A stretch of DNA of 50,049 nt from a virus (Duplodnaviria > Caudoviricetes): positions 1-50,049 of IMG/VR virus record IMGVR_UViG_3300045912_000109; one strand, given 5' to 3'. The position numbers were made by a program, and so were the translations under genes. Positions 39,157 to 40,445 of the stretch are shown here, piece by piece; the stretch's first letter is position 1; each line of letters begins with the position of its first letter. The notes under the pieces were generated by a model. That model searched no databases. It had not been told where the DNA came from and saw only the letters and a program-made list of their open reading frames with translations.

Positions 39157-39315
39157 ATGGTCAAAGGAAGCCCAATCAAACAATCGAGCGGAGGCTCTGC
39201 CACAAAGGGTAAAATCTCCACTCAAATGTCGAACTGCAACCACAAGTGGACTGCCCACACGAAGTCCGGGAAAGGAAAGTTTTCCCCACCATCGTGGGGA
39301 TGGACCGTGAAGTGA
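39157..39315 (+). CDS. 52-aa basic ORF ending across CRISPR repeat A (not in ORF track)
   Basis: A/C-rich leader, MVKGSPIKQSSGGSATKGK...FSPPSWGWTVK*. Confidence 0.5.
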   Translation: MVKGSPIKQSSGGSATKGKISTQMSNCNHKWTAHTKSGKGKFSPPSWGWTVK

Positions 39316-39400
39316 AATCCAAACACGCGATGCCCAAAAGTTTTCCCCACCATCGTGGGGATGGACCGTAAGATGAAAACTAAACACGCGATGCCCAAAA
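39279..39400 (+). CRISPR. Cas-less type I-E-like mini-array 2
   Basis: Two identical 29-nt repeats GTTTTCCCCACCATCGTGGGGATGGACCG (39279-39307, 39340-39368), period 61; the 32-mers following them are 27/32 identical. Confidence 0.88.
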
Positions 39401-39486
39401 AAATTTCCGGCAAAAAAGGAGCGAAAAAAATGTCTCCTCGCCAAATGGCGAAAGCCGGAATGAAGAAGTCCTCGAAGCGATACTGA
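39373..39486 (+). CDS. 37-aa very basic peptide between CRISPR repeats (not in ORF track)
   Basis: MKTKHAMPKKISGKKGAKKMSPRQMAKAGMKKSSKRY*. Confidence 0.55.
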   Translation: MKTKHAMPKKISGKKGAKKMSPRQMAKAGMKKSSKRY

Positions 39487-39513
39487 TTTCTCCACTTACG
39501 TGGGGATGAACCG
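39485..39513 (+). repeat. Divergent type I-E-like CRISPR repeat C
   Basis: GATTTCTCCACTTACGTGGGGATGAACCG: stem retained (one G-U), handle ATGAACCG, ends 2 nt before the next ATG. Confidence 0.8.
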
Positions 39514-39515
39514 TC

Positions 39516-40445
39516 ATGGATACCGTTGAAGAGTTAGTGCCATTGATTGAGCCGTATGTTGGAGCATCCGGTTCATGCGGTGATTTTAATGCTGCCCTTC
39601 AACGGATCAATGATTGTCGTCGCATTCTTTGGAACAAGGGAGACTTTGAGCATACGACTTCGTGGTTTCGGATTTGTTGCGCGGAAGATTGTGTGACTCT
39701 TCCGAGCCAGTATAAGCAAATCCGAATTGCATTTATCGGGGACAATCCGACATCGCTTGGGGATGAGTGGTATCAATCAGTCTACGGGGAGACGATGGGT
39801 GCCTGTGAGGATATTCGGAGCAAACTTATCCACGTTGGGGGATACCACGTTACATTCCGAAACTACAACAAGGCTCCATACATCATTCGGGTTTTCCGAG
39901 AAAACCAGCAAGACCAGAATGTTACGATCACGTTTCGGGCTAAGGCCCAATCGGGGGCGGAGATCGACATTCCGATCACAATGGCGACTGAATACACGGA
40001 TTCCGCGCAGCGAGTTGCCGCTTTGTTACGGGTTACCAAGCCTGTAACTAAAGGGAGAGTCAGGGTTTATGCCTACAACCCGGACTTGAAGGAATATCTA
40101 CTTCTTGCTGTCTACATGCCGGGGGATGTCAACCCGCACTTTGAACGCTATCGTATCCGATACTTCAAGCCTGACTATTTAACGATTCAGGCGAAGAAGA
40201 AGTTTTTCAACCTGACGCAACCTCACGAGCTTGTTGAGTTTAATTCAGACGCCATGATTGAGGCGTCTTTGGCTTTGAACTATCGAGAGGCGCGGGAGCT
40301 TGATAGGTTTGCCAATCACCTAGCCGTCGCTGTTGCTGAACAAAACAGAGAATCCGCAGACAGGGAAATCCCGTCTGCATCACCATTGAGAATAGGATGG
40401 GATCAAAGAGTCACGAACTTAGTAGGGTGGAGCGGCTGTTTTTAA
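39516..40445 (+). CDS. Putative head-tail adaptor / tail tubular protein
   Basis: ALQRIND...CVTLP..Y..I pattern; position in the operon. Confidence 0.5.
   Translation: MDTVEELVPLIEPYVGASGSCGDFNAALQRINDCRRILWNKGDFEHTTSWFRICCAEDCVTLPSQYKQIRIAFIGDNPTSLGDEWYQSVYGETMGACEDIRSKLIHVGGYHVTFRNYNKAPYIIRVFRENQQDQNVTITFRAKAQSGAEIDIPITMATEYTDSAQRVAALLRVTKPVTKGRVRVYAYNPDLKEYLLLAVYMPGDVNPHFERYRIRYFKPDYLTIQAKKKFFNLTQPHELVEFNSDAMIEASLALNYREARELDRFANHLAVAVAEQNRESADREIPSASPLRIGWDQRVTNLVGWSGCF

Follow-up and report, generated by a model that had tools for sequence, protein, structure and literature searches.

CRISPR mini-arrays that come without cas genes, as well as lone repeats, are known in phages, and both their origin and their targets have mostly been inferred from single genomes. 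As described in the relevant passages of PMC6858448 and PMC11656645, the arrays of SPV1 and SPV2 (Sulfolobales) and a set of phage mini-arrays (Faure et al. 2019, cited in both) consist of one spacer between two host-type repeats, with no viral cas genes. Their spacers match nearby genes of close relatives that share the habitat rather than the carrier, in which the orthologous sites are mutated or deleted; the SPV arrays have a leader and a promoter, whereas leaderless forms are known from phages (PMC6858448, PMC11656645, in the same passages). Solitary phage repeat units have been described as RNA anti-CRISPRs (Racrs; e.g. RacrIF1, RacrIE1, RacrIE2 and the acrIC5-racrIC1 bicistron, in the part of PMC10651486 that treats them), and the portion of bioRxiv 10.1101/2024.10.29.618823 devoted to Cracr arrays presents short multi-unit phage arrays, some with imperfect repeats, that are processed by host Cas6e and compete for Cas proteins. 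Here, we analyse a locus related to these systems in the virus record IMGVR_UViG_3300045912_000109 (hereafter the window, i.e. the whole stretch of 50,049 bp, a virus record that is complete and bears direct terminal repeats), in which one spacer flanked by two identical type I-E repeats (A and B), and a solitary repeat (C) further downstream, lie between a small conserved gene and a probable tail gene (Table 1). With about even confidence, we read this locus as a cas-less, leaderless type I-E mini-array (A-spacer-B) plus a solitary repeat, used together with host Cascade against sibling phages.

The late unit resembles the virus mini-arrays in having one spacer, two repeats presumably of the host's type and no cas gene of its own (no Cas domain was found among the window's 34 open reading frames (ORFs) covered by Pfam and 17 covered by PHROGs, small ORFs being covered only in part), in a spacer that would match, though imperfectly, a nearby gene of close relatives sharing one habitat, and in a mutated copy of the matching site in the carrier. 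Like the leaderless phage mini-arrays, and unlike those of SPV1 and SPV2, it has no leader and no convincing promoter. It differs from the published mini-arrays in being a bacterial type I-E unit, in its placement inside a tail operon (where it runs over the last codons of a conserved small gene and reaches up to the following start codon), and in a spacer paralogous to the sequence right after the second repeat, with a boundary that coincides with the junction of protospacer-adjacent motif (PAM) and protospacer and with no perfect target found in the searches reported below. The locus is of a known kind (phage mini-CRISPR arrays plus solitary repeats), and what is unusual are the tail-operon site fused to coding ends, the presence/absence polymorphism and the PAM boundary. 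The carrier and two empty-site versions occur together in one natural population, and the locus suggests, in a form open to testing, how a lone repeat could become a functioning guide against siblings, in that a 61-nucleotide (nt) tandem duplication of ‘repeat plus flank’ can create a canonical CRISPR RNA (crRNA) unit.

Repeats A and B are two identical 29-nt copies of GTTTTCCCCAC-CATC-GTGGGGATGGACCG, to which repeat C is 82% identical over 28 nt. Allowing at most three mismatches, the 27-nt repeat core matched the window four times, as compared with 0.00 matches expected from 100 shuffles; two of these four constitute a second locus, on the minus strand at 12777-12867. Each of the five repeats of the window (the three considered here and two in a second, early mini-array) folds on its own into a 7-bp stem with a tetraloop, and the hallmarks of type I-E repeats are all present (29-nt unit, 6-7-bp G+C stem, tetraloop and the 3' handle AUGRACCG); the stems are perfect in A, B and both early repeats, while C has one G-U pair and the loop TTAC. 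We compared the repeat consensus over 47 viral loci and at least 120 metagenome stretches recovered with a degenerate pattern. As long arrays of the same consensus come immediately after complete cas operons of type I-E (Cas3, Cse1, Cse2, Cas7e, Cas5e, Cas6e and Cas1) and on the same strand in two loci (L109 and L132), the window repeats are assigned to type I-E, and the plus strand of the late unit is taken as the transcribed crRNA orientation. Repeat C agrees with the family consensus at 23 of the 25 non-loop positions (compared by eye), and the closest array among the matches listed (L094) differs from A and B by two loop letters only. Both the A-to-B period (61 nt) and that of the early pair (62 nt) are canonical type I-E unit lengths, a pattern into which the B-to-C distance (145 nt) does not fit. 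All five repeats, at both loci, run in the same sense as the genes around them; consensus, fold and cas-linked arrays bear out the claim of an earlier note, made from the letters of this DNA, that genuine CRISPR repeats run in sense to the late genes.

Rfam (E up to 1) found no CRISPR family in 38000-41000, only a chance gut-2 match; the exact repeat stem-loop had no match in the IMG/VR scan, and the repeat 19-mer had 14 single matches in the GTDB species representatives, all of them in coding sequence and none in an array.

The spacer is a copy of the 32 nt that follow repeat B, since the whole 61-nt unit at 39276-39336 recurs in tandem at 39337-39397 with 92% identity. The earlier note had treated A and B as separate repeats; both are indeed present, but as parts of one duplicated unit. 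All five differences between the two 61-nt units fall outside the 29-nt repeat (p=0.034), i.e. there is no substitution in the 29+29 nt of repeat versus five in the 32-nt spacer part. The spacer therefore agrees with the carrier's own copy at 27 of 32 positions, and the mismatches (positions 2, 4, 5, 11 and 13) are all confined to the first 13.

Near-identical siblings of the phage were recovered as contigs of four other sequencing runs aligned on 38600-40500 (X3, X6 and X8 stem from one sample, X5 from another). A 13.4-kb contig of X5 (depth 33) skips 39279-39367, i.e. the 89 nt made up of repeat A, spacer and repeat B, and a 14.8-kb contig of X3 (depth 53) as well as a 326-nt contig of X6 skip 39281-39373, with AAAG in between; what distinguishes the siblings is precisely a repeat-spacer-repeat. 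With the junctions rebuilt by coordinates, both repeat-less forms have AAG directly 5' of the 32 nt aligned with the spacer, a trinucleotide whose frequency at a given position is 0.018. AAG is the classic PAM of type I-E systems (in E. coli and others). The carrier's own copy is identical to the AAG-flanked site of the X5 sibling, and the spacer matches the allele of X3 and X6 at 29 of 32 positions (mismatches at 2, 11 and 13). When translated, the spacer encodes K-S-K-H-A-M-P-K, which is the allele of P0012, a protein variant from a separate contig; positions 11 and 13 change a Thr of the carrier to Ser in the spacer and P0012 has the same Ser, an agreement known at the protein level.

The spacer's relation to its neighbouring sequence points to a guide RNA function. 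What was observed is the anatomy of the locus, the type and orientation of its repeats, its presence/absence polymorphism, the AAG in register and the relations among the alleles, and from these sequence features we infer transcription, Cas6e cutting, Cascade loading, interference and origin as follows. An array and repeat C would have been inserted at the junction of the small gene and the tail-adaptor gene, in the late operon of a hot-spring phage, and would be transcribed within the late polycistronic RNA, which host Cas6e would cut at the three hairpins. Given an active host Cas6e, cleavage can fairly be predicted after G39299, G39360 and G39505 (the position within the repeat presumably being that of the E. 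coli and Thermus enzymes), and the gene that follows C would then be left with a 10-nt leader. The piece between the cuts at A and B would form a canonical 61-nt crRNA (8-nt AUGGACCG handle, 32-nt guide and 21-nt hairpin) which, once in host Cascade, would direct Cas3 to the uninterrupted site of the siblings, where the match begins directly after the AAG PAM. The carrier would be doubly spared, by CCG instead of a PAM and by five mismatches, three of them in the seed. The RNA from B would consist of a handle followed by the carrier's own sequence, and would match an X5-type sibling perfectly. As to the origin, we suggest that one repeat was placed at the PAM/protospacer boundary and that a 61-nt tandem duplication of the repeat and its 32 nt, via the microhomology AAAGTTTTCC/AAAAATTTCC, subsequently produced the array; that the insert overlaps ORFs and that the late mRNA would be cut apart would result from the landing site and would not be the insert's purpose.

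Several points weigh against this anti-sibling reading. There is no perfect target among the sequences compared: the best is the X3/X6 allele, which agrees at 29 of 32 positions and deviates within the seed at position 2, and the P0012 sibling allele is known as a protein only, on a 52,786-nt contig. That AAG serves as PAM is assumed by carrying it over from other type I-E systems, and a plain tandem duplication could explain the similarity of spacer and flank with no targeting at all. The late unit has no leader and no convincing promoter (3 promoter-like sites versus 1.5 expected); it is preceded by coding sequence, and the 250 nt before it hold one weak promoter-like site (39134-39161, 9/12 matches). 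An array with the exact loop CATC was found neither in the GTDB species representatives, nor in IMG/VR, nor among the viral and metagenome matches listed. Finally, the array form is seen in one assembled genome only, and the siblings are assembled contigs, which drop rare variants. Exact scans of IMG/VR, from which near-identical records may have been lacking, gave no match either to 26 nt of the late spacer or to 37 nt of the carrier's own allele, and neither the late nor the early spacer had a meaningful match in the fetched type I-E loci. Conversely, when 2164 spacers of the fetched type I-E arrays were compared with the window and with 80 distant relatives, a single 26/29 local match (in ~20 relatives) was obtained; it has 5-6 mismatches over the full 32 nt and no AAG, and was dropped as uninformative.

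Table 1. Coordinates of the features discussed; positions refer to the window, except in the last row
Feature	Position	Strand	Description
Repeat A	39279-39307	+	canonical type I-E repeat, 29 nt; predicted Cas6e cut 39299/39300
Spacer	39308-39339	+	32 nt, diverged copy of 39369-39400
Repeat B	39340-39368	+	identical to A; predicted Cas6e cut 39360/39361
Carrier's own protospacer copy	39369-39400	+	preceded by the repeat's CCG; AAG in repeat-less siblings
Repeat C	39485-39513	+	solitary, slightly degenerate type I-E repeat; predicted Cas6e cut 39505/39506
Lys/Arg-rich ORF	39373-39486	+	37 aa, 13 Lys/Arg; between B and C; ORFan
Small conserved gene	39157-39315	+	52 aa; codons 42-52 (FSPPSWGWTVK) = repeat A + 8 nt
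Downstream gene	39516-40445	+	309 aa; fold matches, homologues in 80 related loci
Early mini-array	12777-12867	-	repeat 12839-12867, 33-nt spacer 12806-12838, repeat 12777-12805
Nuclease-bearing loci (L198, L207, L208, L209, L218, L226, L234, L238 and one more)	~4280-4992		

The confinement of the array form to the window and to two runs that are possibly its source (X1 and X2) could also be taken as a sign of misassembly, whereby reads from a host array with a phage-derived spacer were joined into the phage contig. Short contigs of 31-34 nt do lie on A and B in all four sibling runs (individual depths of ~5 to 205), and the summed depth per bin on the repeats is 99-2032 versus 0-53 for the adjoining phage contigs, which fits the presence, in these samples, of CRISPR arrays whose repeat is identical or nearly so; the repeat-like 31-mers involved carry 2-3 other letters. 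Still, we hold such an artefact to be extremely improbable: the longest uninterrupted identity of spacer and phage flank is 19 bases, which at usual k would not suffice for a mis-join, 0.99 of the sampled words of the stretch are present in runs X1 and X2, the second locus and repeat C sit in unique phage sequence, and C recurs in independent contigs.

Repeat C is retained by the site-spanning contigs of X3, X5 and X6, and a contig of X8 covers it from 39489 onward; the differences of X5 within it (39496, 39498 and 39499) are three of three in the 4-nt loop (p=0.0011), with stem and handle unchanged, and this loop-only variation argues for ongoing constraint. Such conservation of stem and handle in the siblings of X3, X5 and X6 also favours an RNA anti-CRISPR or decoy, in which the repeats, above all C and the RNA from B to C (the ‘spacer’ of which has 116 nt), would be produced in bulk with the late transcript and soak up Cas6e, Cas7 and Cas5, aberrant complexes would lower host type I-E immunity, and the putative 37-amino-acid (aa) peptide encoded between B and C could be a partner anti-CRISPR (Acr) protein. 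The titration idea raised in the earlier note is, in fact, the published Racr mechanism, as outlined in the pertinent part of PMC10651486, where RacrIE1 and RacrIE2 inhibit type I-E and an acr gene shares its transcript with a racr located 11 nt downstream. Repeat C is likewise a lone, slightly degenerate repeat, presumably of the host's type, after a small ORF (it starts inside the TGA stop of the 37-aa ORF), and viral type I-E Cracr arrays with 2-3 spacers are portrayed as competing for Cas proteins (bioRxiv 10.1101/2024.10.29.618823, in the portion cited above). The likeness has its limits: unlike the Racrs, C has no evident promoter of its own, is predicted to be expressed late and stands 2 nt before a structural gene, and the Cracr spacers, in that same portion, are 21-24 nt long and directed at host cas or toxin promoters (the class calling for 9 or more PAM-proximal matches), as opposed to the 32-33 nt found here and a late spacer that matches phage sequence. 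We consider a decoy doubtful, as late production would follow the exposure of the phage DNA (an early locus being better suited), no promoter stands out within 250 nt, the peptide has no family and no relatives outside its own lineage, and a spacer that copies its neighbour in register with AAG is left unexplained.

The Lys/Arg-rich ORF, the product of which the earlier note likened to a protamine, is an ORFan. It has no PHROG family, its only match among 1.84 billion representatives is its own variant P0012, it received a low recognition score in the protein atlas, and, within the libraries searched, it resembled no known Acr protein. It is kept in the siblings, where it begins with ATG or GTG, a start codon being retained in three variants. 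The region's only strong Shine-Dalgarno-like motif, AAGGAG (39416-39421), stands 8 nt before an in-frame internal ATG (39430) that would give an 18-aa peptide. Two ideas were discarded, namely that the ORF is the split-off C-terminus of the small gene (it has no similarity to the C-termini of the relatives) and that GGGAAAG acts as a programmed frameshift site (this heptamer lies outside the small gene's frame). In the repeat-less siblings (39128-39278 joined to 39368-39486), the frame of the 154-aa gene upstream of the small gene stays open for ~120 codons past its TAA, through the 37-aa ORF; the chance of an open frame over the 81 codons before this ORF is ~0.02, and coincidence, readthrough or an older, longer gene are all possible.

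The ground on which the insert landed could be traced in distant relatives, i.e. 80 IMG/VR loci of 4-11 kb that were obtained with a profile of homologues of the 309-aa protein (41-44% identity). These share with the window the gene order 610-aa gene, 154-aa gene, small gene, 309-aa gene and 167-aa tail-fibre-like gene. An ORF of 49-59 aa, typically MTPLKGTDPKLVSGG..., stands at the position of the small gene in all 67 distinct intergenic sequences and all 80 relatives, and the N-terminal 26-28 residues of the window's version are 48-58% identical to it (tblastn best E 1e-4); a collection of 5.8 billion proteins had no entry for the small gene. In the repeat-less siblings it encodes 41 aa, ending in ...KSGKGK-TAA, 11 codons earlier. 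On these comparisons we judge the small gene to be real, with repeat A supplying its last 11 codons only. The earlier note was right that repeat A encodes the end of a 52-aa ORF (FSPPSWGWTVK), that B and C bracket a Lys/Arg-rich ORF of 37 aa (13 Lys/Arg by our count) and that C ends (39513) 2 nt before the next ATG (39516); these coding overlaps follow from the landing site of the insert, given that the small gene is conserved in 80 of 80 relatives and is 11 codons shorter in the siblings. None of the 80 relatives' loci contains a type I-E-like repeat or a relative of the 37-aa ORF, and, by this comparison, the repeats are lineage-specific. The interval that separates the 154-aa gene's stop from the 309-aa gene's ATG measures 183-226 nt (59 distinct sequences) or 876-933 nt (8) in the relatives and 388 nt in the window, where the insert adds ~180 nt.

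The longer intergenic regions belong to a different occupant of the same slot: in nine of the 80 relatives a gene for an EndoVII/HNH-like nuclease of 222-237 aa (phrog_1035, E 5e-13 to 9e-9; the Pfam HNH match is below cut-off) lies between the small gene and the 309-aa gene, and looks like an insertion of the homing-endonuclease type. A slot that is a hot spot for insertions (as these nine relatives suggest), together with an insert boundary that falls exactly at the PAM/protospacer junction, would also suit a functionless recombination scar, in which a host array had acquired this very protospacer, recombination or templated repair between the host spacer and the phage protospacer brought the repeats in and the phage survived by the change of AAG to CCG, i.e. 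by CRISPR escape; leaderless phage mini-arrays, according to the passage of PMC6858448 on their origin, may come from recombination with host arrays. We regard a mere scar as unlikely, because the loop CATC of the four canonical repeats occurs in no array sampled (a recent capture is thus not evident), the repeats have no substitutions while the 32-nt spacer part has five, the variation of C is confined to its loop, which argues for constraint, and a second canonical unit resides in the early region.

The polymorphic slot also invites a bolder form of the anti-sibling reading, which we put forward as a tentative and rather doubtful idea, namely that the insert is a protein-free ‘homing’ element. 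A repeat set at a PAM/protospacer boundary would turn its own flank, and the copy of it, into guides against siblings with the empty site, and the same insertion would strip the PAM from the carrier. On co-infection, Cascade-Cas3 would destroy or damage the empty-site genomes and recombinational repair would copy the insert into them, in the manner of a gene drive. In a second layer, C would replace a native intergenic hairpin, so that host Cas6e would also shape the mRNA of the tail gene. Free-standing homing endonuclease genes similarly occupy an intergenic slot of an essential operon, are polymorphic in presence and absence, and are predicted to attack the empty site; unlike them, the insert encodes no nuclease (host Cascade-Cas3 would serve instead), and conversion of the empty site is conjecture. 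Should empty-site targeting be true, it would link mini-arrays with homing elements, at a slot that has a nuclease gene in other relatives.

The native hairpin alluded to above is a palindrome, TTATCG-N4-CGATAA, that directly follows the stop of the small gene in 71 of the 80 relatives, with the 309-aa gene's ATG 0-7 nt further on (in the relatives' sequences that were printed), and whose place is occupied by repeat C in the window. In the form (C/T)TATCG-N4-CGATA(G/A) it has 29 copies in the window (~0 expected; e.g. at 1187, 6401, 12928, 24295, 30111 and 42533), often just before start codons, and 221 copies in 692 kb of the relatives (L182-L261); the loops are GAAA, GTAA or TTAA, the last in 83 of the 221. 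It could be the DNA site of a regulator or an RNA hairpin.

This replacement, by which C might stand in for a native RNA element, is one of the features that speak for the proposal of the earlier note that the repeats were built into the operon to make host Cas6e an mRNA processor or sensor, with cuts at A, B and C that would free a mini-mRNA, leave the tail gene a 10-nt leader and tune expression to the CRISPR status of the host. The repeats are, besides, canonical and in sense orientation, and after a cut at B the handle AUG (39361) would be in frame with the 37-aa ORF. Engineered Cas6/Csy4 sites are used to insulate genes in synthetic operons, where a hairpin between cistrons lets the polycistronic RNA be cut into separate mRNAs. 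The same cutting is expected here in a Cas6e-positive host; those sites, however, are a laboratory design, and no selection for processing is evident in the window. Since near-identical siblings lack A-spacer-B on contigs of 13-15 kb at depths of 33-53, the unit is, judging from these assemblies, dispensable for late gene expression, and the purpose of processing is for this reason unsupported: siblings thrive without it. In addition, the AUG of the handle at C is not in frame with the tail gene, the ATG of which is 10 nt away; many copies of the native palindrome are perfect at the DNA level and would suit an RNA hairpin and a site for a DNA-binding protein equally well; it would be risky for a structural operon to depend on a non-essential host system; and no natural example emerged among the papers listed by the literature searches. 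We therefore deem a processor or sensor very unlikely as the reason for the insert. If Cas6e does act on this RNA, the locus would nevertheless be a natural case of a host CRISPR nuclease cutting a phage structural mRNA.

The product of the downstream gene, which the earlier note called a tail gene, belongs to no Pfam or PHROG family, and the designation finds support at the level of the fold only. An AlphaFold model (pLDDT 74) resembles tail components of the podophages SU10, KHP30 and Pa223 (TM 0.33-0.53), which makes it probably a podovirus tail adaptor or a component like tubular protein A.

Genes on the minus strand at ~3-24 kb encode a helicase, two DNA methylases and other early functions, interrupted by two plus-strand exceptions at ~18.8-21.3 kb (a DnaB-like helicase among them), and those on the plus strand at ~24-44 kb include an endolysin, a tail assembly chaperone-like gene and tail-fibre-like genes. 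Most genes of the window have no Shine-Dalgarno motif, and their leaders are A/C-rich. The 11 public runs that contain the stretch, all of them DNA, are hot-spring and microbial-mat metagenomes; searches of IMG/VR and of a phage collection with single proteins returned no close relatives.

The second mini-array, in the early region, is non-coding and lies in sense to the early genes. Those parts of the unit that a mature crRNA would include (the first repeat's handle and the second repeat's hairpin) are canonical, and the outer parts of the repeats deviate. Its spacer is G+C-rich and has no target in IMG/VR (exact scan, 0 matches), in the window or in the fetched loci; a match in L110 was rejected as coding sequence beside a chance repeat-like string. 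Upstream (to 12990) there is an A-rich stretch and a copy of the family palindrome (12927-12944), with no consensus promoter, and a C/A-rich low-complexity tract of ~90 nt (12690-12776, minus strand) comes after the array. Type I-E mini-arrays of two repeats were also noticed between genes in other IMG/VR contigs (L018, L035, L037, L045, L049, L019 and L017), of which L019 has a duplicated leader-repeat unit, while the repeats of L017 are scattered across 600 nt amid duplicated flanks.

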